DNA of 64,000 nt from contig JAVBNP010000006.1 of the NCBI GenBank assembly GCA_031551455.1, forward strand, positions 6,749 to 70,748. The letters run 5' to 3'. The DNA comes from Bacteroidales bacterium. GTDB lineage: Bacteria; Bacteroidota; Bacteroidia; Bacteroidales; UBA4181. Every line of letters starts with the position of its first letter. Position 1 is the stretch's first letter. This document shows, one piece after another, positions 1,125 through 14,691 of this stretch. Both the position numbers and the translations under genes were made by a program. Under the pieces are notes generated by a model. It had not been told where the DNA came from, searched no databases, and saw nothing but the letters and a program-made list of their open reading frames with translations.

Positions 1125-2405
1125 TTACTTGTTTCCTCTCGCTTTCTCCAAAACCTTTGCAACGGCTTTCAATTGTTCCATTTGCGAAGGATTGATTTGT
1201 CCGTGGGCATTTACCTGTACGTCGAAACACATCACGCCTTCTTTTTCGAAAACTTTTTCGGCCCAATCAACAAGATCTTCCGTTTTGTGTTTCGTCCCCG
1301 GCCTTCCCCAATAGTCGCCTAAAAAGGTGAAATGAAACCATTGTATTCCCGGAGCAATCCACCGTCCGGAAGGTAATTCGTTGATGTCGTTTCGTTCACC
1401 GGCGGCGTAATCGTCGTAAGGCGAGTCGTATTGTATTGCGGCAACACCATAATTGTAACTGACAATGCTCTGCGGATTACCGGCTTTGGCCGCCAATGTA
1501 TGCGTGCTGATATTATGTTCCAAACTCATGTCCGAACGAGTTTGAATAATCCCTCCCCGATCCCGATACATACCGTCAAACCACCATCCCGAAAGATCCT
1601 TTCCGTAACGCAACGACCATTCTTTGATGACCGATTCCCAAAGAGCTTGAGTGTATTGTGACGTGGGAGAATCCTTTCCATACGTGTATTTGAACTTTTC
1701 GCAAACGGCTTCGTTACTGATGGGCGGATTACCGGGCAGATAAAACATGAACCGAATACCTTTCGCCTTCAATGCCTTAATCAAGTCGGCAGGCAGGTCG
1801 CGTTTGCTGCAAAGATCTCCCGGATTTACGCCCGTTATTTGATCATAAGCCGAGTTGGGAGAATTATAATACCCGTCATTCTGTCCGAGTGCCCAAAGGA
1901 CGTACTTTACGCCCGACGCTTCACATAAATCGGCAAACAAGTTGACATCAAATCCTTTGACAATCGCGTTCCACGCTTCCGAGCCGCCTTCTTTGATATA
2001 TACCCCTTTAAGATAATGCACCATCAAACCCAATCCCGCATCTTTAAACCAATCCGTATTCGGATTTCCCTTGTCGGCGATCGGTTTTTTGCTCACAATT
2101 TCCGCCGAAGGATAATCTTTTCCTGTCAAAGATGCTTTGATTTCGCATTTCAGATACTTCCCTGCATAATCGGTTAACAAAACGATTTCGGGCGTGTGAA
2201 TTCCCGGCAAAACCGTCCAATTATCGGAACCGGGATCGCCGATATACCATTGAAACGTTGTTTCTGTTCCGGGTACGGTATTAAATTTAACCCGCACGGT
2301 GTTTTTGGCATACAAGTCACCTTCAAATGAAAGATTGGTAACAACGGGGTTTTGACAAGAAACTGCAATTACCGAAAGAATGATATACAAACAAAGTTTT
2401 TTCAT
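1125..2405 (-). CDS. Lipoprotein with GH29 (alpha-L-fucosidase)-like catalytic-domain layout; putative glycoside hydrolase
   Basis: SpII-type signal (MKKLCLYIILSVIAVSC). An N-terminal beta-sandwich-like segment is followed by DWFKDAGLGLMVHYL ... SGVKYVLWALGQNDGYYNSPNS ... RDLPADLIKALKAKGIRFMFYLP. This mirrors the WF.AKFGIF.HW / AGAKY.V.T.KHHDGF / RD.V.EL...G layout of GH29. By-eye similarity only. Confidence 0.45.
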   Translation of the reverse strand: MKKLCLYIILSVIAVSCQNPVVTNLSFEGDLYAKNTVRVKFNTVPGTETTFQWYIGDPGSDNWTVLPGIHTPEIVLLTDYAGKYLKCEIKASLTGKDYPSAEIVSKKPIADKGNPNTDWFKDAGLGLMVHYLKGVYIKEGGSEAWNAIVKGFDVNLFADLCEASGVKYVLWALGQNDGYYNSPNSAYDQITGVNPGDLCSKRDLPADLIKALKAKGIRFMFYLPGNPPISNEAVCEKFKYTYGKDSPTSQYTQALWESVIKEWSLRYGKDLSGWWFDGMYRDRGGIIQTRSDMSLEHNISTHTLAAKAGNPQSIVSYNYGVAAIQYDSPYDDYAAGERNDINELPSGRWIAPGIQWFHFTFLGDYWGRPGTKHKTEDLVDWAEKVFEKEGVMCFDVQVNAHGQINPSQMEQLKAVAKVLEKARGNK

Positions 2406-2484: not shown

Positions 2485-3765
2485 TTACTTTTCCGACTTC
2501 AAAAGGTTACCGGATAACATGATTTTTCCCAAGTATATATTTCTTTTCGGCAAATCTTTGCGAATGTCGTCTGACAATTCCGCTGCCGGCGGATCGGTTT
2601 GTTTGTCGAAAGGAGTGGGATCAACCGTCAATGTTACCGTATGTTCTCCGTCTTCGAGTTCGGGCAACCAAAAATAGTGATAACGGTAATACGTGCAATA
2701 TTTGTCGAAACGACGAATCGGTATCGGGGATTGATTGTCAATGCGTACGATAACACTACCCGTTCCGGGACCGATCACATCAAAAAAACCGATGCGCGTA
2801 CCTTTGAAACGGACGGTTATTTGATCATCGGCTCCGGTTCCGCAAAAAAGTTCCGGTAATTCGGCTTTGAAACGATCGTATATTTCGTTGCCGGTGCCAA
2901 GTTGCTGCCAATTACCCGACATCTTTGCTTTCGTTACGGAATACCATCCGTATTTTTCGTAATTGTTTGGACTCAACGGTTTTCCCGGTTTTTTCCGAAC
3001 GTGTTGTTTCATTCCCGACATGATGTCAAACGCGTCCGTTAGCGCTTGCGTGTATATCTCATGTCCTTCTCGCGTGGGATGTACTCCATCGTATGAAAAA
3101 ATAATCTTATCGCCGTAATCCTTGCCCTTTTCTCCTTTTACGATCGTTTTTCCGGCAGCAACCGATTTTGCCAACGCAAAATCCAACGCGATGGAAGGTA
3201 TCTTATAATAATCCGCCACTCGTTCCATGACGCGCGCCGAATACCAATGTCGGCCTTGCAGGTTGGTTGCCGTCATCCTATCGGTGGCGGTGTACAAGAA
3301 ACAAATATCGGTTTTGGAATTTCGGTCCAGAATTTGACGCACAATCCCTTCCATGGCATCAATGATTTTTACGGAATCAATGCCGTCATCGTTCACGGCA
3401 TATTCCACGAACACCAAATCGGGCTGGTGTGATAAAACATCATCTTCCGTGCGTACCGCACCGAGATCGGAACATGTACCGCCGATGGCAGCATTTATCA
3501 TGGTAAAAGGAACACCGGGATACATTTCCCGAAACCGTTTTTCGGTCTGCACCCGATAACCGTATCCCGCATTGGTGATGCTTCCGCCGAAATAAACGAC
3601 GGTTACGGGCTTTTTCTCTTTAACTTTGGTAAAGAAATTCGGTAATCCGTCGCGTACGGTCAATGTATTTTCGGGAACGGATTGTGCCAATGAAGTTATC
3701 GAGAAACAGCCGATCAACAAACATGTCGATAATGCGGCAATAATGCAAATATTAATTTTTTTCAT
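2485..3765 (-). CDS. SGNH/GDSL-family hydrolase (putative carbohydrate esterase) with C-terminal beta-rich domain
   Basis: Start moved to the internal MKKINICIIAALSTCLLIGC signal peptide; ATG complement at 3763-3765. Block I VVYFGGSITNAGYG, block III AIGGT and block V-like DGVHPT are present, plus FVEYAVNDD. Confidence 0.7.
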   Translation of the reverse strand: MKKINICIIAALSTCLLIGCFSITSLAQSVPENTLTVRDGLPNFFTKVKEKKPVTVVYFGGSITNAGYGYRVQTEKRFREMYPGVPFTMINAAIGGTCSDLGAVRTEDDVLSHQPDLVFVEYAVNDDGIDSVKIIDAMEGIVRQILDRNSKTDICFLYTATDRMTATNLQGRHWYSARVMERVADYYKIPSIALDFALAKSVAAGKTIVKGEKGKDYGDKIIFSYDGVHPTREGHEIYTQALTDAFDIMSGMKQHVRKKPGKPLSPNNYEKYGWYSVTKAKMSGNWQQLGTGNEIYDRFKAELPELFCGTGADDQITVRFKGTRIGFFDVIGPGTGSVIVRIDNQSPIPIRRFDKYCTYYRYHYFWLPELEDGEHTVTLTVDPTPFDKQTDPPAAELSDDIRKDLPKRNIYLGKIMLSGNLLKSEK

Positions 3766-3937
3766 AATCGAATAAATCCGTCGTACTATTATAACGTTTA
3801 AAGGATTTGTAAAAACGGAAAATACCTTGATGTACAATATTTCAAAAGATATCGATTATCGCAATATTTGCCGTTCATGTAAAATTCGAAATCGATTTCA
3901 TCCCGGCGAAATCGATTTCGAAAATCCGAAGCCGTTG

Positions 3938-5257
3938 TCAGAACTTGAAATACTTTTCTCTGATGGGGATATTCAATAGAGCCGAAGCCGCGTTGTCGCC
4001 GATGAAGTCTTCCTTAACGGGGTCCCAGCTTAATTTCGATCCGATTTTTACCGCAATCAAACCCAGTTGACACATGGATATGGTACGATGTGCGGTTTCG
4101 AGCGGTTCTGCCGATTGTCTTTTTTCTTTGATTGCCAAAAGGAAATCGTCCTTATCGCTCAAATCGGATTTGAATGATTTTTCGTTACTCCCCAAAGGAG
4201 TACTTAATATCGCGTCGGACGAAGCCGAAAGTTTGTCGGGATATTCTATTTCCACCCAGCCGTTCGTGCCTTCAAAACGCACATAAGGACGTTCTATTTT
4301 GAAAAATACTTCCACGCCGTCGGCAAATTTGTAACGAATGTCAAAACGATTCATCGTATTCCACAAACCTTTGTCGAAATCGCCGTTTCCTTCTATTTCT
4401 ATAGGGCCCGTGTACTCGCTGTTATTTCCCCATTGCACGATTCCGACCAAATGAGCTCCCCAGTTGGAAATCATACCATTGCAATAATCGCTCACGCGCA
4501 TCCAACCCGGACGGCCGTATTTTTTTTGCGCATGTACGCGTTTTTCGGTGTAAGGCGCTTCCCAAGCAGGTCCCAACCAAAAATCATAATTCAACTCTTT
4601 GGGAACGGGCATCGTGAGTTGCGGCGGCAGCGGATCGCCGTTCAGTTCGGGAGGAACGGCAACATAAATTCTTTGTATTTTTCCGATACGACCGTTACGA
4701 ATGACCTCGACGAATTGCTGCATCGCCGGGATCGTACGGAATTCGCTGTCGTTTCGCGTAATTACTTTCGATTTTTTGACTGCTTCCACCAATTTGCGGC
4801 CGTGCTCGATGCAGGTCGAAATAGGTTTTTCCAACGAGACGTGTTTTCCCGCGCGAACGGCGTCAATGGCCATCGGCACATGCCAATGGTCGGGCAACGA
4901 CAACATGACGGCATCGATGCTTTTATCCTGCAACAATTTCCGATAGTCGGTGTATGCTTTGCAACCCTTATACGTTTTGCCCGATTCTTCGGTATAAAAA
5001 TCATTTACTTGTTTTTGGGCGGCGTCCAATCTCCAAGTATCGATATCGCAAACGGCAACCACTTGCCCGTGCGGCGACTTCAACAATTGAGGAATATTCG
5101 GATTGACCATTTGACGACCGCATCCGATGCAGGCAACCGTAATCCGATTACTCGGCGCCGTTTTACCGAAAACCGTTGAGGGAACAACCGTCGGCATTAA
5201 AAAAGTTCCCGCGGCAAGCGCAGCGCTTTTTTTCAAAAATTCTCTTCGTTCATTCAT
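3938..5257 (-). CDS. Tat-exported Gfo/Idh/MocA-family NAD(P)-dependent oxidoreductase (glycoside 3-dehydrogenase-like or GH109-like)
   Basis: Start set at MNERREFLKKSAALAAGTF, which carries a twin-arginine RREFLK motif. Rossmann start ITVACIGCGRQ. The DAVMLSLPDHWH and EKP motifs are typical of Gfo/Idh/MocA. Confidence 0.8.
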   Translation of the reverse strand: MNERREFLKKSAALAAGTFLMPTVVPSTVFGKTAPSNRITVACIGCGRQMVNPNIPQLLKSPHGQVVAVCDIDTWRLDAAQKQVNDFYTEESGKTYKGCKAYTDYRKLLQDKSIDAVMLSLPDHWHVPMAIDAVRAGKHVSLEKPISTCIEHGRKLVEAVKKSKVITRNDSEFRTIPAMQQFVEVIRNGRIGKIQRIYVAVPPELNGDPLPPQLTMPVPKELNYDFWLGPAWEAPYTEKRVHAQKKYGRPGWMRVSDYCNGMISNWGAHLVGIVQWGNNSEYTGPIEIEGNGDFDKGLWNTMNRFDIRYKFADGVEVFFKIERPYVRFEGTNGWVEIEYPDKLSASSDAILSTPLGSNEKSFKSDLSDKDDFLLAIKEKRQSAEPLETAHRTISMCQLGLIAVKIGSKLSWDPVKEDFIGDNAASALLNIPIREKYFKF

Positions 5258-5326
5258 GATATTATGTTTTGTATTATTCGATAAAATTCCCTTTCCTTTG
5301 TTTTCCCGAAGCCGGTTCAACAACAC

Positions 5327-5372
5327 GACTCCCCCTCTCCATGTGGGAGAAGGGGTCGGGGGGAGAGGCGCT
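5327..5372. repeat. G/C-rich REP-like hairpin between two co-directional genes
   Basis: gactccccctctcc-atgtg-ggagaaggggtcggggggagagg. CCCCTCTCC pairs with GGAGAAGGGG (one bulge), or alternatively CTCCCCC with GGGGGAG. Confidence 0.4.
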
Positions 5373-5375
5373 CAT

Positions 5376-6539
5376 TTACGCATATTCATTCCAAGTTTCC
5401 CACATGGCCCAGAAATTTTCGGGCGGAACATCTTCTTGCACATTATGTACAGGCGCAAAAACAAAACCGCCGCCCGGCGCCATGATGTCGATGATGCGTC
5501 GCACCTCGTCGCGTACCTGTTCCGGTGTACCGTTATTCAATGTCGATTGCGTATCCACGCCGCCGCCCCAGAATGTGATATCTTTTCCGAAATCTTTCTT
5601 CAAACCTTTCAATTCCATATTTTTGGCGGTAAACTGCACCGGATTCAGAATATCCACGCCGGCATCTATCAAATCGGGAATAATGGGACGAATGGAACCG
5701 CAGCAATGCAGGAACACTTTTGCATGCGGCAACCTTTTTTTCACGTGCGTGAATAATGTTTTCATACGCGGAATGACGGTTGCACGAAGCAGATCCGGTT
5801 CCAAAATGGTTGCATCCTGCGAACCCAAATCATCGCATTCCGATATTACTTGTATTTTATGTTCGTTTCCCGTTTTTTTCGCCCAATCGATAATGGCGTC
5901 CCAATAATTGATTTTGTCTTCGAGAATAATATCGAATAAAGCATCCACGCCTTCGGGATCGATCATCGTGTCCAAAAACCAATTTTCATAACCGCGGATA
6001 CGTAACGAATTTTCGGTAAATCCTGCCGTATTGCGGTCGGCAATGCAACAAGAATCGCCTACTTGAAGCACTTGCCAATCCATGCATTTCTCCAAATCCG
6101 CAATGTACGACTTCCAATCGGGTCGCGGCAACTTATGTAAATTACCCGAGATGGTTTCACAACCATCCAACGGCGAACCCACCAAGTTGAAATAAATATC
6201 TTTCCCTTCCTGATACGTCCATTTGCAACCGTAAAAATCGTACACGGTGGTGATGTTCCCCTCGACGATTTTATTCTTGTCGTATTCGAGTATGCGCGTG
6301 GCGCCGATACGACGTGTGTCCGATTTCAACTTCACCAGATTCTCTTCGATCGGGGTGATGATTTGTTGTATCGGATCGACCATTTCGGGATTGTAATCGA
6401 TAGACAATCCTTTGAATTTCATCGCTTTTTGGTAAGCATTTTTAGTGATGGCCGTCACCGTGGTACCCGAAAGATCGTAAGGAACTCTGTCCGGTTCCTC
6501 ATGATTCAGGGCTTTTGCAATTCTTTCTTTTCCGTTCAT
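5376..6539 (-). CDS. Uroporphyrinogen-decarboxylase (URO-D) fold protein, MtaA/CmuA-like methyltransferase family, divergent member (not HemE)
   Basis: 387 aa. N-terminus KERIAKALNHEEPDRVPYDL. LHCCGSI motif and C-terminal GGGFVFAPVHNVQ. It lacks the HemE PVW.MRQAGR signature. Confidence 0.65.
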   Translation of the reverse strand: MNGKERIAKALNHEEPDRVPYDLSGTTVTAITKNAYQKAMKFKGLSIDYNPEMVDPIQQIITPIEENLVKLKSDTRRIGATRILEYDKNKIVEGNITTVYDFYGCKWTYQEGKDIYFNLVGSPLDGCETISGNLHKLPRPDWKSYIADLEKCMDWQVLQVGDSCCIADRNTAGFTENSLRIRGYENWFLDTMIDPEGVDALFDIILEDKINYWDAIIDWAKKTGNEHKIQVISECDDLGSQDATILEPDLLRATVIPRMKTLFTHVKKRLPHAKVFLHCCGSIRPIIPDLIDAGVDILNPVQFTAKNMELKGLKKDFGKDITFWGGGVDTQSTLNNGTPEQVRDEVRRIIDIMAPGGGFVFAPVHNVQEDVPPENFWAMWETWNEYA

Positions 6540-6594
6540 GATATATTTATATTTTGATGATGATGTGTTTCTTAATTATCGAATAAAAAATCGT

Positions 6595-7851
6595 TTATAT
6601 TTTGATTGGTTTGATCTTCGGAAGCAACAATTGTATAACGGTTAAGGCTATGAAATAACCGAAAGCCGCTACCGTAAAAGGTATGATGTAGCCGTCCGTA
6701 CCCGATCCTTGTAAAGCTGCGCCGATCAACAACGGGGCTATGAACCCGCCGACCGCTCCCGCAAATCCGCCCAATCCGGAAACGGATGCTGTAACTTTTT
6801 TCGGAAATACGTCGCTCATCAAGCTGAAAATATTGGCCGACCAACCGCAGTGTCCGCCTGCCGCAACGGCAATCAAGGCAACCGCGGTCCATACGCCTTC
6901 CGCGTGCGGAACGTACATTACGGGAAGAGCACATATCGCGCAAGCCAACATGCTCAATTTACGTCCTCTGTTCAAGTTATTCCCTTGTTTCAACAGCTTG
7001 GACGACAACCATCCCAAAAGAATTCCGCCACCCCACGATACCGAGTATACAGTAAAAAAAGGCAATCCTATTTGCGTTAGTTCCAACCCAAATTTGGCTT
7101 TTAGGAATTTTGCGCCCCAGAACAGATAAAACCACCAAATGGGATCGGCCATGAATTTTCCGACGAGAATGGCCCACGTGGCACGATAACTTAACAGTTT
7201 TGAGTAAGCAACCTTTTCCGTCGTCGATTCTTCCTTGTCGCTTAAAATGTAATCCAATTCGGCTTGGTTTACTTTTTTGCTTTGTTCGGGCACGGAATAA
7301 AATTTCCACCAAAGAATGATCCAGATGATTGCGATCGGAAAAGTCCAAACGAATGCAACACGCCAAGTCCCGAACGTCGCTACCAACAAAGGGATGATCA
7401 GCGGGGCCGTCATGCTGCCGACATTAGCGCCGCCGTTGAAAATACTCACCGCAAGCGCCCGTTCTTTTTTCGGAAACCATTGGGCTACCGTTTTATTTGC
7501 CGCGGGAAAACTGCCCGATTGTCCGATGGAAAGAGCAAACCGACTTACCGCCATTCCGATCCATGACGAAACCAGAGCATGCGCCAGTTGTGCAATACTC
7601 CATAACCCCATCGAAACGGCGTAACCTTTTTTCGTTCCCATACGGTCGACGATCCGACCCATGATGAGGAAACAGATGGCATAACCGATCATAAAAGCGG
7701 AAGTGACATATCCGTATTGTTTTTCCGTCCATTCTATCGGCAGGTACGGCGCCATGATCCCCAAAGCGCCACGGTCAATGTACAGCAATGTGGTGGCTAT
7801 GAATAGTAAGGAGAGGATGAACCACCTGATTTTGGTTTTCTTTTGTTCCAT
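6595..7851 (-). CDS. MFS transporter, ACS/ExuT (hexuronate or sugar-acid)-like
   Basis: 418 aa with about 12 hydrophobic helices. The N-terminal RWFILSLLFIATTLLYIDRGALGIMAP pattern resembles anion:cation symporter family members. Confidence 0.75.
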   Translation of the reverse strand: MEQKKTKIRWFILSLLFIATTLLYIDRGALGIMAPYLPIEWTEKQYGYVTSAFMIGYAICFLIMGRIVDRMGTKKGYAVSMGLWSIAQLAHALVSSWIGMAVSRFALSIGQSGSFPAANKTVAQWFPKKERALAVSIFNGGANVGSMTAPLIIPLLVATFGTWRVAFVWTFPIAIIWIILWWKFYSVPEQSKKVNQAELDYILSDKEESTTEKVAYSKLLSYRATWAILVGKFMADPIWWFYLFWGAKFLKAKFGLELTQIGLPFFTVYSVSWGGGILLGWLSSKLLKQGNNLNRGRKLSMLACAICALPVMYVPHAEGVWTAVALIAVAAGGHCGWSANIFSLMSDVFPKKVTASVSGLGGFAGAVGGFIAPLLIGAALQGSGTDGYIIPFTVAAFGYFIALTVIQLLLPKIKPIKI

Positions 7852-7975
7852 TATTGGTTGTTTTTATGATTTTGTCGTATTAATAAATAACGATTAAAGG
7901 ATTAGTATTTATTATTGATGATGCATAAAACAGACTGTTTATTCCTAATTTAAAAGAACATCGATCGGGTATTCG

Positions 7976-8830
7976 TTATTTCAAAGCTGTAACAACGCCT
8001 TTAAAATAACCCGCCGATTCGGCCACGATTCTCACCGTATCTTCTTTATTTTCGGTACCCGTTTCCATGCTGCATGCTCCGGCGTAACCTATTTTTTTCA
8101 AGGTACGTACCAGCAGCGGAATATCGATAACTCCTCGTCCGATAATGCAAATTTTTTCGCTTTTCCCGGCGCCCGTAGCATCGTTCAAATGCATATCGAA
8201 CAAACGGTCGTGATAATTTTCAATGTCAGCAATCGGATTAAGTCCGTCACGTACGGTATGTCCGATATCCAGGCATAAACCGATGCGCGGATCGAGGTCT
8301 TTGATATATTTCATCACGTCGGTAGCATTGGGGTATAAATCTATGTCGGGTCCGTGGTTATGGATAGCATACCGGAAATCGTATTCCTTAACCTTTTTTT
8401 CCACATACGGCAACATTTCATGATTCGGAACGCCCACGATCAGTTTTACCCCAACTCGACGGGCATAATCGAAAGCGGCATCCGTTTCGGCTTCCGTTTT
8501 CATGTAGATGGGACCGGCCGCATAACCCGTGACGTTTTTGGCGGCAAGTTTGGCTTTAAAAGCGGCTATTTCTTCATCGGTACTTGTCATTGGCAAGTGA
8601 AAATCTTTGATGCACAAATAATGCAAGTCCAATTGCTGCAGAACTTCCAACGTTTCGTCGATGTCGAATTTTGCAAACGTATATCCGGCAACGGACAAAT
8701 TAAACTTTGCATCCGGATCTTTTTGCGGGGCGGAGTTGGTACATGAATTTTGCCCCACAAGAAGCGGAACGGCACTTGCGGCGAGCAATCCCGCGCCGGC
8801 TTTTTTTACGAAATTTCTTCTCGTGGTCAT
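7976..8830 (-). CDS. Tat-exported sugar-phosphate isomerase/epimerase (xylose isomerase-like TIM barrel) family protein
   Basis: MTTRRNFVKKAGAGLLAASAV carries an RRNFVK twin-arginine motif. The AIHNHG and CLDIGH metal-site-like motifs are characteristic of AP_endonuc_2 TIM barrels. Confidence 0.8.
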   Translation of the reverse strand: MTTRRNFVKKAGAGLLAASAVPLLVGQNSCTNSAPQKDPDAKFNLSVAGYTFAKFDIDETLEVLQQLDLHYLCIKDFHLPMTSTDEEIAAFKAKLAAKNVTGYAAGPIYMKTEAETDAAFDYARRVGVKLIVGVPNHEMLPYVEKKVKEYDFRYAIHNHGPDIDLYPNATDVMKYIKDLDPRIGLCLDIGHTVRDGLNPIADIENYHDRLFDMHLNDATGAGKSEKICIIGRGVIDIPLLVRTLKKIGYAGACSMETGTENKEDTVRIVAESAGYFKGVVTALK

Positions 8831-8851
8831 TTTAATAGTGTTTTGATATGG

Positions 8852-10039
8852 TTATCGATAAGCTTTTTTCATGATTTGAACCGTTTCGTCGAACGAAAGC
8901 GTATAACGGTCGCGCGCAAAAAGTTTTCCCATGGTATCGTATGCTTTTTGGGCTAACGAGGGGATGTCTTCCACGCGGATGCCGTAATCGGACATTTTCA
9001 AATCGTCGACGCTACAAGAACGACGCAACTTTGCCAATGCGGTCACGAAAAGTTCTCCCCGTTTTTCGGGTGCCGTGTTTTCCGTATCTTCTCCCATAGC
9101 CTTTGCGAGATCGCCGAGCAATTCCGGAATTTTATCGGCAAAGAACGAGAAAAACGAATCGGACAACATGATCAGTCCCGCGCCGTGCGGCAAATCGGGG
9201 CTTACCGCACTCAACGCATGTTCCATGGAGTGATGGGAGGTGGTGGAAGAAATCGATTCCACCAAACCCGAAAGCGTATTGGCAAAAGCTACTTGCGTGC
9301 GGGCTTCCAAGTCGTTGCCGTTCGTTACCGCGCACGGTAAATATTTTGTTACCAATTCCGCACTCTTCAAGGCATACAAATTACTGATGGGGGTCGCGGC
9401 ATTGGAAATATAACCTTCAACGGCATGAAACAATGCATCGAAACCCTGATAGGCAGTGAGTTTCGAGGGAACCGAAAGCATTAATTCGGGATCAACGATC
9501 GACAAGGTCGGGAAGGTATCCGGACGACCCAAGCCGATTTTTTCGTTGGTGTCTTCTCTGGTAATCACCGTCCACGGATCGGCTTCGGTACCGGTGCCGG
9601 CGGTTGTGGTAATGGCTATGATCGGCAAGGCTTTGTTCGGAGCGGTTTTCTTTCCGCCACTGCCCGCCGCGATATAATCCCAATAATCACCCGGATTGTG
9701 AACCATCAAAGCGATGCTTTTGGCCGAATCGATCGAGCTGCCTCCTCCGAGGCCGATCACGAAATCGCAGTTTTCTTTGCGCGCCAGTTCGGCGCCTTCG
9801 GCAACGTGCGGCAATATCGGATTTGCCAGTATTTTATCGAAAACGACGGCTTCAGTTTGGTTGTTTTCTTTCAACAACGCCAGTACTCGATCCAAATAAC
9901 CGTTCGCTTTCATGGATTTTCCGGCCGATGTAACCACAAGGGCCTTTTTTCCGGGTAAAGGAATTTTACCTAATTCGTTCAATTTCCCGGGACCGAACAA
10001 AATTTTCGTCGGGATGAAATAAGTAAACTCGTTGTTCAT
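8852..10039 (-). CDS. Iron-containing (group III) alcohol dehydrogenase, FucO/lactaldehyde-reductase-like
   Basis: Start set at MNNEFTYFIPTKILFGPGKL; ATG complement at 10037-10039. GLGGGSSIDSAKSIA glycine-rich NAD motif and conserved His-rich metal region (HHSMEHALS). Confidence 0.85.
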   Translation of the reverse strand: MNNEFTYFIPTKILFGPGKLNELGKIPLPGKKALVVTSAGKSMKANGYLDRVLALLKENNQTEAVVFDKILANPILPHVAEGAELARKENCDFVIGLGGGSSIDSAKSIALMVHNPGDYWDYIAAGSGGKKTAPNKALPIIAITTTAGTGTEADPWTVITREDTNEKIGLGRPDTFPTLSIVDPELMLSVPSKLTAYQGFDALFHAVEGYISNAATPISNLYALKSAELVTKYLPCAVTNGNDLEARTQVAFANTLSGLVESISSTTSHHSMEHALSAVSPDLPHGAGLIMLSDSFFSFFADKIPELLGDLAKAMGEDTENTAPEKRGELFVTALAKLRRSCSVDDLKMSDYGIRVEDIPSLAQKAYDTMGKLFARDRYTLSFDETVQIMKKAYR

Positions 10040-10192
10040 GGTGATAAAATTTTTATTACGCGTTACCGTGCTTTTCGTTGTTATACGCAACTTGACGACA
10101 TACGGTCGTCGAAAAAGCGAACCATCCGTCGGAATATGCTTGCGACATACGCCGACGGATGCGGTTCGAAACAAAATCGGATTTCCGAAATA

Positions 10193-11206
10193 TTAACGGG
10201 TCCGATTAAAATCGTTCAATGCTTTGTAAAACGCATCGATGTTTTCGAAGCTTACATGCGGCGGAACGTCGCATCCCGACGAAAGAATATAATTTTTGTA
10301 CTCCTTGGTGCGTTCCAGCAATTCGTAAACCGTTTTGTACAACTGGTCGGGAGTCATCATTTTGATCATACCCACGGGATCGACGTTACCCATGACAAGC
10401 AGGTTGCCGGGGCAAGCTTTCAACGCTTCGACCATATTGATGGCATTTCCGAAATGGTACGCATTTGCTCCCGTATAAAGCATGGCGTCGGTACATTGTC
10501 CCGTATTGCCGCAATTATGCAATACCACCATGAAACTGTCGTCTTGTACGACGGCAATCAATGTTTTCAGATATTCGGAAGAAAATTCCTTACAATCGTC
10601 GTTAGATAACAAGCCGGCAGCCGGTTCCGCAATCACCACACCGCTGCAACCGACACGTTTCAGCTCTTTACAATAAGCCGTGATAAATTGAGTACATTTA
10701 TCCAACAACATTTTGATGGCATCGGGCTCGATGTAACATGCCGTCATGATTTCGGACATGTCGAATAAACGTCCGGCCAACGAGAACGGACCAATAACAC
10801 CGGCTAACGTGGGTCTTCCCTTGATTTGCTCCACCACGAGCTTATTCGCTTTCAAATATTCGGGAACACGACCGGCGGTGAGGGCGGGAACTTTCAGTTT
10901 TTCTATTTCTTCGGCTGTGCTTACCAAACGACCCAAAATGTGGGGCATGTCGTTATCGGGAAATTCTATTTTGCAACCGAAAGCTTCCGCTTCCACGGTC
11001 AAATCCATGATTACCGTTGTTGCGGCCGACGGATATTTGTCGCTCAAGGCTTTGATGGCTTGTGCATGTACTTCTCCGCTTTTCACGGCATCGACCACCC
11101 GTTTGCCGATCATTTCGATACCCGGATGCGTCATGATCGGAATGGCGCTGCGTTTTTTATCCGCAACGATTTGCTCCATCCATTTTTTCATATTCATTGT
11201 TTCCAT
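10193..11206 (-). CDS. MtaA/MtbA/CmuA-type methylcobamide methyltransferase (URO-D fold)
   Basis: 337 aa and immediately downstream of the corrinoid protein gene. It carries VVLHNCGN (H-x-C) and ILSSGCDVPP, the zinc-ligand pattern of MtaA-type enzymes. No HemE RQAGR motif. Confidence 0.75.
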   Translation of the reverse strand: METMNMKKWMEQIVADKKRSAIPIMTHPGIEMIGKRVVDAVKSGEVHAQAIKALSDKYPSAATTVIMDLTVEAEAFGCKIEFPDNDMPHILGRLVSTAEEIEKLKVPALTAGRVPEYLKANKLVVEQIKGRPTLAGVIGPFSLAGRLFDMSEIMTACYIEPDAIKMLLDKCTQFITAYCKELKRVGCSGVVIAEPAAGLLSNDDCKEFSSEYLKTLIAVVQDDSFMVVLHNCGNTGQCTDAMLYTGANAYHFGNAINMVEALKACPGNLLVMGNVDPVGMIKMMTPDQLYKTVYELLERTKEYKNYILSSGCDVPPHVSFENIDAFYKALNDFNRTR

Positions 11207-11232
11207 CTTCTGTTCTTTTTAAAAGGTTGCGA

Positions 11233-11922
11233 TTAAGCGGTCAAACGATCCAAAATATCGACCAATGCCTGAGGTTCGGACGAATAATAATCCGCGCCGA
11301 TTTTCTTGGCGAATTCGTTATTTAACGGAGCTCCGCCGATACAGGTAACAGCTTTCGGGAACTCGGCTTTGATCGCTTTGTTGATTTTTTCCATGTTCAC
11401 CATGGTAGTGGTAAGAAGAGCCGACATGCCGACAAAGGCGTCGGGATTCTCTTTGATGGCGGCAATGAACTTTTCCGCCGAAACGTCCACACCGAGATCG
11501 ATTACTTCGTAACCGTTGCCTTCAACGATCATGCTCACCAAATTTTTTCCGATATCGTGCAAATCGCCTTCTACCGTGCCGATGATGAATTTTCCTTTAC
11601 GTTTTACCGATCCGTCGTTGAAGAATTTTTTCAAGTGGGCCATGGCTCCGCTCATGGCTTTGGCGCTCATCAACACTTGGGGCACGAAAACCTTATTTTC
11701 TCTGAACTTTACGCCCACTTTGCCCATACCTTCAATCAATCCGTGCGTAAGAATTTCGCCGGGACTAACGCCTTCGTTCAACGCTTGCACCGTAAGTTCG
11801 TCGGCGCCGGGTTGACCTTTCATGTCGGGGGGATAAGGAGAAGTTTGGTTGATCTTTCCGAATTCCACGCATTTCGCAATTTGTTCCAAAATACTACTCA
11901 TAGTTCCAAAATTTAAATTCAA
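11233..11922 (-). CDS. Corrinoid (cobalamin)-binding methyltransferase partner protein (MtaC/MtbC/MtvC-like)
   Basis: N-terminal helical cap domain followed by the B12-binding signature GDLHDIGKN (DxHxxG), MSALLTT (SxL) and IGGAPL (GG). Confidence 0.85.
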   Translation of the reverse strand: MNLNFGTMSSILEQIAKCVEFGKINQTSPYPPDMKGQPGADELTVQALNEGVSPGEILTHGLIEGMGKVGVKFRENKVFVPQVLMSAKAMSGAMAHLKKFFNDGSVKRKGKFIIGTVEGDLHDIGKNLVSMIVEGNGYEVIDLGVDVSAEKFIAAIKENPDAFVGMSALLTTTMVNMEKINKAIKAEFPKAVTCIGGAPLNNEFAKKIGADYYSSEPQALVDILDRLTA

Positions 11923-11925
11923 TAT

Positions 11926-12675
11926 TTATAATTCTTTTATTTTAATGTTTTTATATGACACTTTGTCGCCATGATCCTGTAACAGGATATAGCCTTCGGC
12001 AACTTCGCCGTATCCCGCTTTATCTTTGAATTTGGATTTTTGTACCAACGCCTTGAATTCGTCGCTGCCCAATACATAACTCAGCATTAATTCGCCGTTT
12101 AACCAATGTTCCACATGTCTGTCTTTGCTGACGATGCGACCACTGTTCCATTCGCCCGTGGGGTTGACTTTTTTTGTGTCCGGAGCTTCAATCAGTTCAT
12201 ATAAACCGCCCAATTTGCAACCTACTGGAATTTTATCCGTTTGGAAAATCGGATGTACTCCGTCGTCGATGATTTGATATTCCGGGCCGAAGACGTAAGC
12301 GCTGTTGGGATTTCCCAGCGATTCGTCCACGAAATATTTGATGCCGCTGTTGGCTCCCGGAGACATTTTGAAATCGAAAGTCAGATCGAAGTTTCCGTAT
12401 TTTTTCACGGTAACCAAGTCGCCGCCGTTAGCCGATTCTCCTCCTTTGCTTTTTTCGACGATCAAACAACCGTCTTCAACTCGCCAACCATGTTTCGGCA
12501 GACTATCGGTATAAATACGACGCCAACCGTTCATGGTTTTTCCGTCGAAAAGAAGTTGCCAACCATCTTTTTTTTCTTTTTCGGTCAATTGATTGTCTGC
12601 CGAAGGCGAAGAACCTCCGCAGGAAAAAATAAATGCGCAACAGGCAATGAGAAAAGGGATTTGGATGATTTTCAT
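11926..12675 (-). CDS. DUF1080 (3-keto-disaccharide hydrolase family) lipoprotein
   Basis: Start set at MKIIQIPFLIACCAFIFSC; ATG complement at 12673-12675. GWQLLFDGKTMNGW, GDLVTVKKYGNFDL, NSGIKY, PEYQIIDD, GGLYEL, GEWN and ILLQDHGDKVSYKNIKIKEL match the DUF1080 pattern. Confidence 0.8.
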   Translation of the reverse strand: MKIIQIPFLIACCAFIFSCGGSSPSADNQLTEKEKKDGWQLLFDGKTMNGWRRIYTDSLPKHGWRVEDGCLIVEKSKGGESANGGDLVTVKKYGNFDLTFDFKMSPGANSGIKYFVDESLGNPNSAYVFGPEYQIIDDGVHPIFQTDKIPVGCKLGGLYELIEAPDTKKVNPTGEWNSGRIVSKDRHVEHWLNGELMLSYVLGSDEFKALVQKSKFKDKAGYGEVAEGYILLQDHGDKVSYKNIKIKEL

Positions 12676-12753
12676 GAGTTTGATTTTTTCGTTAACGGTA
12701 TTAATTTCGAGATCTACTTGCAAATATAAGGTTATTGTTTTGAATATCGGCTA

Positions 12754-13773
12754 CTACAATGAATTTCTGATAATGACTTTCGTCGGAATATTTTTTTGAA
12801 CGAATTGTTGCGTTTCGACGAATTGTCGAATTTCGATTCCCATTTGTCTGAAATCGGTGCTCACGACGGTGATTCCGTTTCGGATGATTTCTTTCATCGG
12901 AGTTTCGTTATATGAGATAATCCCGATATCCGTTCCTATTTTATACCCCGCTTCCTCCGAAAATTTAACAACTTTAATTAAGTCGTTATCCGTTATTACC
13001 AAAAAAGCCGAACCTTTTCGAATCATCTCTTTTTCGACCACGGTTTCGGTTGATCTGTATATGCCTGCGGCATCGCACACTCGGGAAAACGAATCTTTGA
13101 TTTCTTCGGGAAATCCTCTTCCGGGTGGAAATATCAACCGGAAACAATCGTATTTTTTTATCCGATCGCTTGCTTGCAATAATGCGTTTATCAATTCATC
13201 ATCAAACCGTTGACTGATGTACGACGCATCGCTCAAAGCCGGTGGACGAATGATTTGCAACAATTTATGTTTGGGAATTTCGTTCAATACTTTTTTTACC
13301 GAAGGATGTTGAAAACAGGTAACAAGATACAGTCCGTATAATCCGACATGCTCCTTAATGACGGCGCGAAAAACGTCGGGATTGCAATGATGAAAAAACA
13401 AGTCCGTCCCGATATTTTTCGATTCGAGTCCCGAAATGATTTCTTTGTACAGAATTTCGTGATAGGAATCGAAAGAAGTCAAAAAAAGCATCACTTTTAA
13501 CTGACGATCAACGCCCCTGTTTCCGACGAAATAACCTATTCTGTTTTTTGATTCGATGACTCCGTTTTTTTTCAGCTCATTCAATGCTTTCACGACCGTC
13601 ATGCGGGCAAAACCGGTTTGGGCAATGATATAATTGACGGACGGCAACGGATCACCTCGTCGCAGTTTTTTTTCGGAAATCATTTGCACGATTCCGTCGA
13701 TCACTTTCGTTTGCTTTGATTTATTGCCGCCGGCATTGAAAACACCACTCATGGCTGTTCTATATTTACCCAT
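12754..13773 (-). CDS. GntR-type HTH regulator fused to a LacI/periplasmic-binding-protein-like sugar-sensing domain
   Basis: RGDPLPSVNYIIAQTGFARMTVVKALNELKKNGVIESKNRIGYFV is a GntR winged helix. The remaining roughly 250 aa alternate beta-alpha like a Peripla_BP domain. Confidence 0.75.
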   Translation of the reverse strand: MGKYRTAMSGVFNAGGNKSKQTKVIDGIVQMISEKKLRRGDPLPSVNYIIAQTGFARMTVVKALNELKKNGVIESKNRIGYFVGNRGVDRQLKVMLFLTSFDSYHEILYKEIISGLESKNIGTDLFFHHCNPDVFRAVIKEHVGLYGLYLVTCFQHPSVKKVLNEIPKHKLLQIIRPPALSDASYISQRFDDELINALLQASDRIKKYDCFRLIFPPGRGFPEEIKDSFSRVCDAAGIYRSTETVVEKEMIRKGSAFLVITDNDLIKVVKFSEEAGYKIGTDIGIISYNETPMKEIIRNGITVVSTDFRQMGIEIRQFVETQQFVQKNIPTKVIIRNSL

Positions 13774-14157: not shown

Positions 14158-14691
14158 TCAATGATGATGTTCCGCTTCTTCCGAATCTTTTTGGGTTTTA
14201 TGTACCGTTCCGTGCGGATGTTCCACCGGCGAATAAATCGAGTACAATTTCAACGGTTTATCGCCGATGTTGACGAGGTTGTGCCATTTCCCCGCGGGAA
14301 CAAATACAGCAAAATCTTTGCCCGCCATTTCCGTGAAATCGAGAGCGTCTTCACTGTCCCCCATCATTACTTTTGCTTTACCGTCTTCGATCCGTAAAAA
14401 CTGGTCGGTATCCGGATGGCGTTCCAAACCGACATCGCCTCCCACGGGAATGGACATCAAGGTTACCTGAATTTTCCCGCCTGTCCATAAGGCGGTTCTG
14501 AAATTGTCATTGGCGTCGGTGTAAGACTCGATATCCAATACGGTCGGCTCCGCACCGTAATCTTTCAACAGCACTTCCGTCTTCGCTATCTTTTCCTCAC
14601 TTACGGCACTTTTGGGGTTTTGATGGCAAGAAGTTCCAAACAATCCGAAAAAAGGCAAACAGAGAACAAATAAAACCGATTTCTTTTTCAT
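14158..14691 (-). CDS. Exported cupin-domain protein (lipoprotein signal, C-terminal His-rich tail)
   Basis: MKKKSVLFVLCLPFFGLFGTSC signal. Cupin-like GLERHPDTDQFLRIEDG ... FVPAGKWHNLVNIG. Ends in EEAEHHH. Confidence 0.6.
   Translation of the reverse strand: MKKKSVLFVLCLPFFGLFGTSCHQNPKSAVSEEKIAKTEVLLKDYGAEPTVLDIESYTDANDNFRTALWTGGKIQVTLMSIPVGGDVGLERHPDTDQFLRIEDGKAKVMMGDSEDALDFTEMAGKDFAVFVPAGKWHNLVNIGDKPLKLYSIYSPVEHPHGTVHKTQKDSEEAEHHH

Follow-up and report, generated by a model that had tools for sequence, protein, structure and literature searches.

An operon of a Bacteroidales bacterium that may link periplasmic oxidation-elimination of glycosides to corrinoid-dependent demethylation of a sugar

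The window, by which we mean the whole stretch of 64,000 nucleotides that was analysed, carries on its minus strand a string of nine co-directional genes separated by gaps of 3-172 bp (Table 1). Within it, the sequence-only reading had singled out an oxidoreductase and a TIM barrel with twin-arginine (Tat) motifs and a DUF1080 lipoprotein, all on one strand and in one gene string. This description is borne out, as the motifs are conserved in homologues and the domains are matched by Pfam, but it understated the string: a corrinoid protein (CP), an MtaA-like zinc methyltransferase, an iron-containing alcohol dehydrogenase (Fe-ADH), a DgoT-like MFS transporter and a second URO-D-family protein, UROD387, were overlooked. 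These five define the purpose of the operon and are interspersed within the trio, in the order DUF1080 / CP, MtaA, ADH / TIM / MFS, UROD / oxidoreductase. A hairpin scan found a strong hairpin solely 3' of the oxidoreductase stop, and no internal terminator within the interleaved genes; the regulator, starting at 13773, and the structural genes from 12675 to 3938 are a single operon. The SGNH/GDSL esterase gene beyond the hairpin is probably a separate downstream unit, possibly encoding an accessory de-esterifying enzyme, and the GH29-like protein has no orthologue in related loci.

Table 1. Features of the gene string and their domain matches
Feature	Position	Strand	Evidence and remarks
GH29-like protein (alpha-L-fucosidase family), exported	1125..2405	-	PF01120 3.5e-18, residues 150-421; final gene of the string
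SGNH/GDSL esterase, exported	2485..3765	-	PF13472 2.6e-14; signal-like MKKINICIIAALSTCLLIGC
Terminator-like hairpin, 16-bp stem	3885..3922	-	Hairpin scan and sequence read; ends the transcription unit
Gfo/Idh/MocA oxidoreductase, Tat signal	3938..5257	-	PF01408 8e-18, PF19051 7e-25
UROD387, divergent URO-D-family protein, cytoplasmic	5376..6539	-	PF01208 9e-24, C-terminal half only
MFS transporter, anion:cation symporter type	6595..7851	-	PF07690 2.3e-58; TIGR00893 230 bits
Xylose-isomerase-like TIM barrel, Tat signal, 3LMZ family	7976..8830	-	PF01261 1.5e-19; N-terminus MTTRRNFVKKAGAGLLAASAVPLLVG
Iron-containing alcohol dehydrogenase, cytoplasmic	8852..10039	-	PF00465 4e-50, PF25137 4e-34; conserved core
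MtaA337, MtaA/CmuA-like URO-D-family methyltransferase	10193..11206	-	PF01208 2.3e-57; NCBIfam mtaA_cmuA 138 bits
Corrinoid (B12-binding) protein, putative methyl carrier	11233..11901	-	PF02607 2.3e-17, PF02310 9.7e-24
DUF1080 lipoprotein	11926..12675	-	PF06439 3.1e-47
Regulator, GntR-type HTH and periplasmic-binding-protein-like sugar sensor	12754..13773	-	PF00392 3.6e-13, PF13377 1.4e-7; first gene of the string

The oxidoreductase ORF spans 3938..5326, and from the ATG at 5257 the protein begins with MNERREFLKKSAALAAGTFLMPTVVPSTVFG, followed by KTAPSN. Two arginines occupy the same N-terminal position in 41 of 43 related oxidoreductases from homologous loci, the remaining two being truncated ORFs, and 8TDF, a crystallised dehydrogenase of the AL3/BT3 type, aligns with the protein from FGKTAPSN onwards, just past the predicted signal. 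The twin-arginine motifs of the oxidoreductase and the TIM barrel are therefore not a product of chance; from the signal motifs and their conservation, we infer that the trio is exported. The top NCBIfam match of the oxidoreductase is the glycoside 3-dehydrogenase model BT_2158_fam, with 136 bits and thus far under the equivalog cut-off of 750 bits, and its best solved relatives are 8TDF (E 6e-24) and 8TDH (E 1e-21). It lacks the sugar contacts Arg192/Trp195 of AL3 and has Asn-x3-His where AL3 has Asp-x3-His, the former motif being reported also for a glucuronide 3-dehydrogenase (10.1101/2024.03.25.586180); an EKP motif and N265-x3-H269 are invariant among its 70-74% orthologues. By homology, it is a candidate for a periplasmic glycoside 3-dehydrogenase that carries NAD(P) in bound form; the suggested link to GH109 is weak (structure 2IXA, 32 bits). 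The Tat-exported glucose-fructose oxidoreductase (GFOR) of Zymomonas belongs to the same family (49 bits), and the closest solved relative of the transporter carries D-galactonate, so that one might imagine oxidation of a free aldose at C1 and import of the aldonic acid by the DgoT-like protein, with the DUF1080 protein and the TIM barrel being accessory or unrelated. We regard this as very doubtful, as GFOR scores well below 8TDF (88 bits), a glycoside 3-dehydrogenase is the best NCBIfam model, DUF1080 fusions are tightly linked in related loci, and a bound-cofactor enzyme in the periplasm of an anaerobe needs an internal re-oxidant, which a 3-keto cycle supplies.

The DUF1080 ORF (11926..12723) is read from the ATG at 12675 as MKIIQIPFLIACCAFIFSC followed by GGSS, a lipoprotein-type signal. 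Its nearest structures are the uncharacterised 4JQT/3HBK, but the BT2157-type 3OSD/8TDA still match over the full length; against 8TDA/8TDE and 3OSD/8RR2 the whole domain aligns at E ~4e-35, and the SKF...QDH sugar-contact residues are kept. Export signals, too, correspond, AL2 being a lipoprotein and AL3 a Tat substrate (10.1101/2024.03.25.586180). The sequence-only reading treated DUF1080 as a family of 3-keto-disaccharide hydrolases, but the current description of these enzymes is that of lyase/hydratases (10.1101/2024.03.25.586180), and the protein is a candidate periplasmic 3-keto-glycoside 1,2-lyase/3-keto-2-hydroxy-glycal hydratase. Profile and structure assignments thus agree with the proposed oxidation-elimination module for these two proteins and depart from it for the third. 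The TIM barrel matches 3LMZ (E 6e-101, 61% identity), and its placement in the AL1/BT2156 lyase family had to be rejected: its profile matches 8TCD/8TCS only at E ~2e-3, and neither is among its Foldseek top 50. It belongs to a separate, uncharacterised family, akin to the known lyases at the superfamily level only. Residues H157/H159/D188/H214/E256 are invariant among its homologues; 10 of 18 carry MTTRRNFxKK and the other eight Sec-type signals, indicating that the family is exported either way.

Conservation was followed across 79 non-redundant UROD387 loci, 48 of them with full flanks. MFS and UROD387 form a conserved pair, the transporter gene lying within 6 kb in 50/79 loci (39/48 with full flanks) and directly upstream in 50/79. 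An exported oxidoreductase with the RR motif accompanies UROD387 in 42/79 loci (33/48), and a TIM-DUF1080 fusion, whose DUF1080 half is 51% identical to ours (E 1e-72), follows directly downstream in 14/79, usually with the oxidoreductase next; oxidoreductase orthologues come after UROD387 or the fusion in L001, L005, L020, L022, L024, L037 and L050. In 13-17 related loci, an orthologue of the regulator (47-58% identity) is the gene next upstream of MFS-UROD387. The oxidoreductase and DUF1080 are thus co-conserved, and both accompany MFS-UROD387 across phyla. Most of the nearest homologues of the TIM barrel stand alone among housekeeping genes; the order TIM-MFS-UROD is kept in L006, L019, L020 and L071. 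DUF1080 is missing from L071, the closest syntenic locus, and all three trio genes are missing from L173; this inconstancy counts against the reading that we favour below. One can ask whether the trio is instead a self-contained 3-keto-glycoside module like BT2156-2158, sharing its operon with a separate corrinoid/URO-D/ADH/MFS system, for example for methanol. Oxidoreductase and DUF1080 are indeed homologous to AL/BT enzymes, whose cycle is redox-neutral and requires no cytoplasmic partner (10.1101/2024.03.25.586180), and homologues of the corrinoid protein and MtaA337 are widespread without the trio, sometimes with MtaB for methanol. However, the window encodes no MtaB, methyl-transfer genes stand between those of the trio with no terminator found in between, and oxidoreductase and DUF1080 recur beside MFS-UROD387 in different phyla, making such a division unlikely.

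The methyl-transfer genes encode homologues of MtaA- and MtaC-type proteins. MtgC/MtbC/MtaC-like models match the corrinoid protein, in which DLHDIG (DxHxxG), SALL and GG motifs can be read and which is 82% identical to corrinoid proteins of Parabacteroides goldsteinii/faecis. MtaA337, with M. mazei MtaA 4AY7 as best PDB match (E 5e-17) and H230-x-C232 plus C312 invariant among orthologues, is a candidate methyl-corrinoid:acceptor methyltransferase (MT II). For UROD387, a candidate substrate:corrinoid methyltransferase (MT I), 4AY7 is the top match in both sequence and fold. Nevertheless, it might be a cofactor-independent enzyme, such as a decarboxylase or isomerase, acting on an imported sugar acid, with the corrinoid protein and MtaA337 using another methyl donor. 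Its N-terminal half is matched by no Pfam model; the third zinc Cys of MtaA is replaced by H365, although H278-x-C280 is conserved; in fold, MtaA outranks uroporphyrinogen decarboxylases only narrowly (E 3e-9 versus 1e-7, with a model of moderate quality, pLDDT 72); and 72/79 UROD387 loci have no corrinoid protein within 10 kb. The last three points also weigh on our own reading. We still consider this alternative improbable. NCBIfam matches of UROD387 are solely of the methyltransferase branch (MtaA/MtbA/CmuA/MetE-type), with no hemE among them, and UROD387-type genes adjoin corrinoid genes in six independent layouts: (1) the window and L071; (2) L173/L174, CP-MtaA-MetH-activation-like-FeADH-MFS-UROD (85% identity)-PL-GH88; (3) L013/L068, beside a full MtaB-CobW-RACo set; (4) L054; (5) L028/L029, with a homocysteine S-methyltransferase in the string; and (6) polysaccharide loci of P. 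goldsteinii, as CP-MtaA-MetHact-RhaT-UROD415 flanked by SusC/D pairs and as CP-MtaA-MetHact-UROD354 flanked by GH78/GH106 genes. In Pfam-annotated Parabacteroides-type clusters (L128, L171/L172), the URO-D protein is the sole MT I candidate.

Several neighbours point to an acidic sugar. The MFS protein, a probable sugar-acid importer, finds its best PDB match in DgoT, which carries D-galactonate in E. coli (6E9N/6E9O, E 1e-43), and it preserves the YIDR motif. CE15 glucuronoyl-esterase-like genes occur in L005 and L023, neighbouring genes encode GH88, heparinase-II/III-type lyases, a PfkB kinase and a GH120-like protein, and the Asn-x3-His of the oxidoreductase fits the same context. In a close relative, the cytoplasmic core is kept and a polysaccharide lyase and GH88 replace the trio, as expected of a glycan-cleaving module. 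Fe-ADH, whose orthologues (73-74%) are likewise placed in L071 and L173/L174, falls under every NCBIfam equivalog cut-off (nearest GbsB-like, 230 bits, and lactaldehyde reductase, 224 bits). The substrate could also be a methoxylated aromatic glycoside (lignan, phenylpropanoid or flavonoid), deglycosylated by the trio, with the imported aglycone O-demethylated as in acetogens and Fe-ADH acting on its side chain. To our knowledge, every O-demethylase MT I enzyme of the URO-D type characterised so far, OdmB and VdmB among them, uses aryl methyl ethers; AL/BT enzymes cleave aryl- and thio-glycosides, and the ACS and aromatic-acid MFS families are related. Yet the neighbours are carbohydrate enzymes for uronic-acid or rhamnose polymers (PL, GH88, CE15, GH78, GH106, sulfatase), the paired transporters are of sugar types (DgoT-like and RhaT), and the regulator carries a sugar-binding-type sensor domain. 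We therefore give this substrate class little credence.

Our preferred reading, held with somewhat less than even confidence, is that periplasmic oxidation-elimination frees a sugar that bears an O-methyl group and is probably acidic, and that this sugar is then taken up and loses its methyl group in a corrinoid-dependent manner. The oxidoreductase would oxidise C3 of a sugar residue in the glycoside. The DUF1080 lipoprotein, possibly with assistance from the TIM barrel, would then split off the aglycone or adjoining glycan through 1,2-elimination, with rehydration of the glycal; and the reduced oxidoreductase would turn the keto-sugar back to its reduced form. By this cycle, the bond would be broken with no classical hydrolysis and no net change in redox state. 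The freed sugar would enter through the DgoT-like transporter; 4-O-methyl-glucuronic acid is the best single guess, if one more apt to be wrong than right. In the cytoplasm, UROD387 would move the O-methyl group of this same molecule onto the Co(I) corrinoid protein, from which the MtaA-like zinc enzyme would hand it to tetrahydrofolate, homocysteine or another thiol; Fe-ADH, or an aldo-keto reductase in other loci, may perform a carbonyl or alcohol step, and the demethylated sugar would pass into ordinary catabolism. That the known corrinoid O-demethylases use aryl methyl ethers counts against this reading: the alkyl methyl ether of a sugar leaves far less readily, and we know of no precedent for its corrinoid-dependent demethylation. 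Neither a reductive activator (RACo/RamA) nor a MetH-activation-like gene occurs in the window, a further point against it. Moreover, AL3/BT3 requires free 3-OH and 4-OH groups, so that a 4-O-methyl sugar would demand a different specificity of this 35%-identical enzyme.

Compared with known systems, the oxidoreductase and the DUF1080 protein are moderately distant homologues of the AL3/BT2158 dehydrogenase and the AL2/BT2157 lyase/hydratase, respectively. The AL/BT route cleaves either anomer and accepts substrates that are modified outside positions 3 and 4, properties that would suit unusual methylated residues. We found no paper describing a combined system of oxidative deglycosylation and sugar demethylation. 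The operon seems to unite two known kinds of machinery, an exported trio and B12-type methyl transfer, and, if our reading is true, this would suggest a way for anaerobes to demethylate sugars of plant or algal origin.

The ORF reading of the window placed all substantial open reading frames from 13773 down to 1125 on the minus strand, and we assigned these genes by Pfam and NCBIfam (see table). Intergenic gaps range from 3 to 172 bp, and a single strong terminator-like hairpin with a 16-bp stem lies right behind the stop codon of the oxidoreductase gene, on which grounds we take 12675 to 3938, with the regulator gene ahead of it, as the transcription unit. This unit coincides with the span that a sequence-only reading had assigned to a periplasmic, non-hydrolytic glycoside-cleavage module consisting of an exported oxidoreductase, a TIM barrel and a DUF1080 lipoprotein. 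A sigma-70 promoter scan did not exceed shuffle expectation; the sigma-70 consensus is not applicable to Bacteroidota, and of the two signals the hairpin alone was used. Upstream, a TPP riboswitch (RF00059, 69.9 bits) precedes the gene of a TonB-dependent receptor (729 aa) and that of a cupin lipoprotein. The receptor with its riboswitch is a unit separate from the operon, and the set probably serves thiamine-related uptake and marks the operon's upstream boundary. A cobalamin riboswitch or BtuB upstream of the operon was rejected, the riboswitch of this unrelated neighbour being the sole Rfam match in the window. Farther away, a second Gfo/Idh/MocA oxidoreductase (PF01408 and PF22725), preceded by a DUF5703_N protein, starts with MAESRKEFIKK, an Arg-Lys variant of a Tat-like motif. 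An SprB/CHU_C-type ORF and a 2954-aa ORF, each followed by a PorP/SprF gene, look like loci for type IX secretion cargo and adhesins.

Features of the window, with gene assignments of the operon region and its surroundings
Feature	Position	Strand	Assigned by
GntR and periplasmic-binding-protein-type regulator	12754-13773	-	Pfam/NCBIfam
DUF1080 (PF06439) lipoprotein	11926-12675	-	Pfam/NCBIfam
Corrinoid protein (B12-binding_2 and B12-binding)	11233-11901	-	Pfam/NCBIfam
MtaA337, MtaA/CmuA-like URO-D methyltransferase	10193-11206	-	Pfam/NCBIfam
153-bp gap between MtaA337 and alcohol dehydrogenase genes	10040-10192
Iron alcohol dehydrogenase	8852-10039	-	Pfam/NCBIfam
Xylose-isomerase-like TIM barrel	7976-8830	-	Pfam/NCBIfam
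MFS transporter	6595-7851	-	Pfam/NCBIfam
UROD387, second, divergent URO-D protein	5376-6539	-	Pfam/NCBIfam
Gfo/Idh/MocA oxidoreductase with PF19051 C-terminal domain	3938-5257	-	Pfam/NCBIfam
Terminator-like hairpin	3922-3885
SGNH esterase	2485-3765	-	Pfam/NCBIfam
GH29-like protein	1125-2405	-	Pfam/NCBIfam
Cupin lipoprotein	14158-14691
TonB-dependent receptor	15099-17288
TPP riboswitch	17444-17540	-	Rfam
DUF5703_N protein	20410-22938	+
Second Gfo/Idh/MocA oxidoreductase	23164-24525	+
Region with SprB/CHU_C-type and PorP/SprF genes	41162-57369
PorP/SprF gene after the SprB/CHU_C-type ORF	45644-46582
2954-aa ORF	47519-56383
PorP/SprF gene after the 2954-aa ORF	56401-57369

The export motifs noted earlier, twin arginines on the oxidoreductase and the TIM barrel, are present in the sequence, and the DUF1080 protein has a lipoprotein-type signal with a lipobox-like FIFSC. 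Of 43 related oxidoreductases from homologous loci, 41 retain the twin arginine and the other two are truncated ORFs; aligned with the crystal structure of the dehydrogenase 8TDF, the window oxidoreductase matches from FGKTAPSN onwards, directly past the predicted signal. The best NCBIfam model, BT_2158_fam (NF058561), scores 136 bits against a cut-off of 750 bits and covers profile positions 1-320 of 487; judged by its profile match, the oxidoreductase is a homologue, not an equivalog, of this family. Its closest solved structures are 8TDF (E 6e-24; 88 bits over residues 30-279) and 8TDH (E 1e-21). The proposed kinship with GH109 enzymes was not borne out: compared with the 88 bits for 8TDF, the GH109 founder 2IXA reached 32 bits (E 4.8e-7), confined to the N-terminal Rossmann part. 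In numbering mapped from chain indices, the protein retains the EKP motif and His269, aligned with the catalytic His252 of the glycoside 3-dehydrogenase AL3, while it has Asn265 at the position of AL3 Asp248, the partner of that His, and Pro and Asn at those of the sugar contacts Arg192 and Trp195. Asn205 and His209 are given for a glucuronide 3-dehydrogenase (10.1101/2024.03.25.586180), and the shared Asn-x3-His arrangement is a weak hint that the substrate may be acidic.

The DUF1080 protein (PF06439, 3.1e-47) aligns over its full length with BT2157-type chains (3OSD, 8RR2 and 8TDA, E ~4e-35), and its SKF and QDH motifs are identical to those holding the sugar contacts Lys245, Gln273 and His275 of BT2, assuming a chain offset of 25. 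It is nearer to the uncharacterised structures 4JQT and 3HBK than to the BT2157-type chains, and 51% identical to the DUF1080 half of TIM-DUF1080 fusion proteins encoded at related loci. Two members of the trio thus stood up as real but distant members of 3-keto-glycoside enzyme families, whereas the third, the TIM barrel, belongs to a different family.

This TIM barrel is 61% identical to 3LMZ, an uncharacterised Parabacteroides distasonis protein, and signals in its family are of the form MTTRRNFxKK or Sec-type. The profile of this uncharacterised family (3LMZ, 3P6L, 4KW2) matches the AL1/BT1 structures 8TCD and 8TCS at E ~2e-3, with ~20 bits over ~90 residues, and neither structure is among the Foldseek top 50 for the window protein. 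An H-x-H...D...H...E pattern of similar spacing is a superfamily trait, and by fold ketose epimerases are closer to the protein than is any enzyme acting on 3-keto-glycosides. The suggestion that it is an AL1/BT2156-type lyase could therefore not be upheld. Its proximity to a corrinoid protein gene also raised the idea of a cobamide-remodelling CbiR, which we rejected, as the NCBIfam match (E 6e-4; 19 bits against a cut-off of 105) covers 37 residues and corresponds to the superfamily motif. The nearest homologues are mostly lone genes next to housekeeping genes. In Dysgonomonas hofstadii and gut metagenome contigs (L086-L090), for instance, a 3LMZ-type exported TIM barrel with 58-62% identity to that of the window usually stands alone between genes for a PNP_UDP_1 nucleoside phosphorylase and rlmH, a setting that points to a conserved periplasmic function of its own.

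Between the members of the trio lie genes for a corrinoid protein, two URO-D proteins and an alcohol dehydrogenase, all lacking a signal and therefore cytoplasmic. Besides its two B12-binding domains, the corrinoid protein shows the motifs DxHxxG, SxL and GG, which we take, following the definition from MetH, to denote His-on cobalamin binding. MtaA337 scores 138 bits against the 235-bit cut-off of the NCBIfam model mtaA_cmuA; its closest solved relative is Methanosarcina mazei MtaA (4AY7, E 5e-17), and HxC...C is invariant, so that it is homologous, at family level, to methyl-corrinoid:acceptor methyltransferases and a candidate MT II. To our knowledge, Bacteroidales do not make coenzyme M. 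UROD387 matches only MtaA/MtbA/CmuA/MetE-type NCBIfam models, and in sequence comparison as well as by fold MtaA comes first (by fold, E 3e-9 versus 1e-7 for decarboxylases; the predicted model is mediocre, at pLDDT 72). Its family keeps H278-x-C280 and has a His (VHN; His365) at the exact position of MtaA's third zinc-binding Cys. UROD387, which lacks one zinc ligand of MtaA and has no close relative that is characterised, is the sole candidate in the operon for the substrate-side methyltransferase (MT I).

Among window ORFs of at least 200 aa other than the 2954-aa ORF, Pfam detected neither a RACo/RamA activator nor a MetH-activation-like gene. Activator or MetH-activation-like genes are present in the related loci L013, L128, L171 and L173, and close relatives carry the latter between the MtaA-like and alcohol dehydrogenase genes, where the window has a 153-bp gap. 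A decayed copy at this position was considered and dismissed, as tblastn and blastn of the window found no remnant; corrinoid reactivation, if any, would consequently be supplied from elsewhere.

We scanned species-representative genomes with a UROD387 alignment, obtaining 80 loci, to which look-ups added five; 79 remained after duplicate removal, 48 of them with 5 kb on both sides, and counts were based on ORF clustering. The MFS gene lies immediately upstream of UROD387 in 50 of the 79 loci (39 of the 48 with full flanks), and an RR-motif oxidoreductase of ~450 aa within 6 kb in 42 (33 of the 48). A TIM-DUF1080 fusion of ~520 aa directly follows UROD387 in 14/79, usually with the oxidoreductase next; the TIM barrel of the window is not related to the TIM half of this fusion. 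Other neighbours are an aldo-keto reductase and the regulator (13/79 each), DUF6807 (8/79) and GH88 (6/79). In most UROD387 loci, no corrinoid gene was found within 10 kb; examples of complete genomes in which MFS-UROD387 has none close by are those of Gaoshiqia hydrogeniformans Z1-71 (NZ_CP186334.1) and Mariniphaga sediminis SY21. The expected co-conservation of the trio was hence confirmed for the oxidoreductase and DUF1080, which track UROD387 loci, and only half for the TIM barrel, whose window-type genes occur upstream of MFS-UROD387 in L006, L019, L020 and L071 and elsewhere mostly alone. DUF1080 and the TIM barrel are variable parts of the locus; L071 has the gene order of the window without DUF1080. 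At several MFS-UROD387 loci (L003, L009, L016, L023, L043, L044, L048, L051, L052), DUF6807 (PF14100) adjoins a second RR-oxidoreductase subfamily with a GNQGVHE motif and is apparently an alternative partner to TIM-DUF1080.

In L173 and L174, the order is DUF2264, corrinoid protein, MtaA, MetH-activation-like gene, alcohol dehydrogenase, MFS, UROD, heparinase-II/III-type lyase and GH88. They contain the cytoplasmic core of the window (identities: UROD 85%, corrinoid protein 80%, MtaA 72%, alcohol dehydrogenase 74%, MFS 75%) and lack the entire trio. This exchange of the trio for a lyase and GH88 around an unchanged core is our best evidence that the trio is the glycan-cleaving part of the same pathway. 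L054 reads UROD-MFS-corrinoid protein-(reverse-strand ORF)-MtaA. In the human gut species Parabacteroides goldsteinii (L128, 9320-14015), genes for a corrinoid protein, MtaA, the MetH-activation-like protein, a RhaT symporter and UROD415 (40% identity, same motifs) are set between SusC/SusD pairs, and a P. goldsteinii-type locus (L171, 10001-13497) has a corrinoid protein (82%), MtaA, the MetH-activation-like gene and UROD354 between GH78- and GH106-type rhamnosidase genes, plus a sulfatase. The Pfam-annotated Parabacteroides-type clusters offer no candidate for the substrate-side methyltransferase other than the URO-D protein.

L028 (3-12762) and L029 form one co-directional string encoding a UROD387-type copy, a GH120-like protein, FKBP, a corrinoid protein, a URO-D protein (332 aa), a URO-D-thioredoxin fusion (539 aa), homocysteine S-methyltransferase (PF02574), CobW, MFS, UROD389 and TIM-DUF1080; it has the look of a split, MetH-like pathway to methionine that starts from a methylated substrate. 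In L013 (12147-18769) and L068 (13017-19193), MFS-UROD adjoins a complete MtaB-CobW-RACo methanol set; here, as in L092, L093 and L106, all Bacteroidetes metagenome genomes, a divergent AraC gene is followed by genes for a corrinoid protein, an MtaA-like protein, MtaB (PF12176, E 6e-161), CobW, RACo and a MetH-activation-like protein. Such complete methanol-type operons suggest that methanol methyl groups may be used outside methanogens and acetogens.

What could the substrate be? Glycans of plants and algae commonly contain O-methylated sugars: xylan and arabinogalactan proteins have 4-O-methyl-glucuronic acid, rhamnogalacturonan II has 2-O-methyl-fucose and 2-O-methyl-xylose, porphyran has 6-O-methyl-galactose, and methyl-rhamnoses are another example. 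The sole route known to us for removing sugar O-methyl groups is an O2-dependent P450. Among solved structures, DgoT, the D-galactonate symporter of E. coli, is nearest to the window transporter (E 1e-43), which retains the Asp-Arg of the YIDR motif, whose Arg in DgoT presumably binds the carboxylate. Related loci contain CE15 glucuronoyl-esterase-like genes (L005, L023), GH88, uronate-type lyases, a GH120-like gene and a PfkB kinase. Transporter and uronate-type neighbours together indicate a uronic or aldonic acid as substrate, for which 4-O-methyl-glucuronic acid is the obvious methylated candidate; judging from the relatives linked to RhaT and rhamnosidases, methylated deoxy-sugars may be the substrates of other family members. 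Since AL3/BT3 requires free 3- and 4-hydroxyls (10.1101/2024.03.25.586180), its distant homologue in the window would have to differ in specificity to act on 4-O-methyl-glucuronic acid.

Mainly because a sugar transporter and a UROD387-like gene recur with a corrinoid protein and an MtaA-like enzyme in glycan loci of anaerobes, we tentatively propose, at rather less than even confidence, that UROD387-type proteins, in every case accompanied by a transporter for sugars or sugar acids, represent a new class of corrinoid-dependent MT I that removes sugar O-methyl groups. Demethylation would take place in the cytoplasm, in anaerobic Bacteroidota as well as in other anaerobes that degrade glycans, and the corrinoid would retain the methyl group for methionine or folate metabolism; in the window, the system would share one operon with a non-hydrolytic (3-keto) module that frees the methylated residue. 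Substrates would include 4-O-methyl-glucuronate, methyl-rhamnose, methyl-fucose and perhaps 6-O-methyl-galactose. We know of no precedent for corrinoid attack on an alkyl ether.

If correct, UROD387-type proteins would be the anaerobic counterpart of P450 sugar demethylases, extending corrinoid O-demethylation from aryl to sugar ethers, adding a methyl-conserving step to Bacteroidales metabolism and tying vitamin B12 availability to gut fibre breakdown; 3-keto glycoside cleavage would be a swappable module, here replacing a polysaccharide lyase and GH88. The operon and its relatives are concrete, clonable candidates, some of them in the cultured P. goldsteinii, which makes genetics tractable. 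Should the proposal be wrong, the locus would still be a divergent member of the AL/BT type with an unexplained link to B12 enzymes. Our literature search, of incomplete coverage and hence no proof of novelty, found no account of corrinoid/URO-D systems in Bacteroidales glycan loci.

As predicted from its genes, the operon would be novel in combining two known kinds of system with a candidate new substrate class. The first is the AL1-AL4/BT2156-BT2159 pathway of Alistipes and Bacteroides thetaiotaomicron (10.1101/2024.03.25.586180; PMC8121099), which shares a Tat-signal Gfo/Idh/MocA protein with PF19051, a DUF1080 lipoprotein and an exported xylose-isomerase-like TIM barrel. There, AL3/BT3 (BT2158) is a Tat-exported glycoside 3-dehydrogenase with tightly bound NAD, the DUF1080 lipoprotein AL2/BT2 a 3-keto-alpha-glycoside 1,2-lyase and glycal hydratase, and the TIM barrel AL1/BT1 a 3-keto-beta-glycoside lyase (10.1101/2024.03.25.586180). 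The best matches of the window oxidoreductase and DUF1080 protein point to this pathway, while the TIM barrel comes from another family; we regard the trio as a divergent relative with predicted activity. The AL/BT system further has a second, cytoplasmic Gfo/Idh/MocA protein (BT2159/AL4) and a SusR/DUF6377 regulator, whereas the window operon has neither, but a GntR/PBP regulator; another oxidoreductase lies ~10 kb off on the opposite strand with its own signal-like N-terminus. Unlike AL/BT, the module has genes for corrinoid methyl transfer and for an anion transporter around it. The TIM superfamily of the window protein also includes three enzymes that all act on 3-keto-glycosides, namely AtOGE (8BVK, O-glycoside beta-eliminase) and AtHYD (8RO4, 2-hydroxy-3-keto-glucal hydratase), both of Agrobacterium tumefaciens, and E. 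coli YcjR (6WN6); starting from the window protein they are detectable by profile (8BVK, E 7e-5) and fold (ranks 26-41), but at 11-15% identity and behind ketose 3-epimerases, UlaE and IolE.

The second kind comprises MtaABC of methanogens and the MT I/corrinoid protein/MT II/activator O-demethylases of acetogens and Desulfitobacterium, with which the operon has in common a small corrinoid protein bearing DxHxxG, a zinc methyltransferase of MtaA type and a second URO-D protein as candidate MT I. In contrast to these, the operon comes from a polysaccharide-degrading member of the Bacteroidales, its MT I candidate is of a divergent family paired with sugar transporters, no activator gene was found in the window ORFs scanned, and the reaction would presumably act on an alkyl methyl ether of a sugar rather than on methanol or an aryl ether. 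We also considered, and set aside, identity with the type 1 mlp clusters, which likewise bring together MtaA-like URO-D proteins and a corrinoid protein in non-methanogens of anoxic habitats; these comprise two or three Mlps with a Ram/RACE activase, mainly in Firmicutes, and are tied to methyl-sulfur or methyl-selenium metabolism (Kountz and Balskus, PMC10418091), the text making no mention of Bacteroid-, sugar or MFS. In proposed role only, O-methyl removal from a polysaccharide-derived sugar in a polysaccharide utilisation locus, the operon resembles the cytochrome P450/ferredoxin system with which aerobic marine bacteria demethylate 6-O-methyl-D-galactose (Reisky et al. 2018, as cited in PMC12316285); a 2025 study of gut porphyran use describes the anaerobic mechanism for this sugar as still to be discovered (PMC12316285). 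The P450 route employs unrelated proteins, depends on hydroxylation with O2 and releases formaldehyde, whereas in the route proposed here the methyl group would be retained, by a transfer reaction sensitive to O2.
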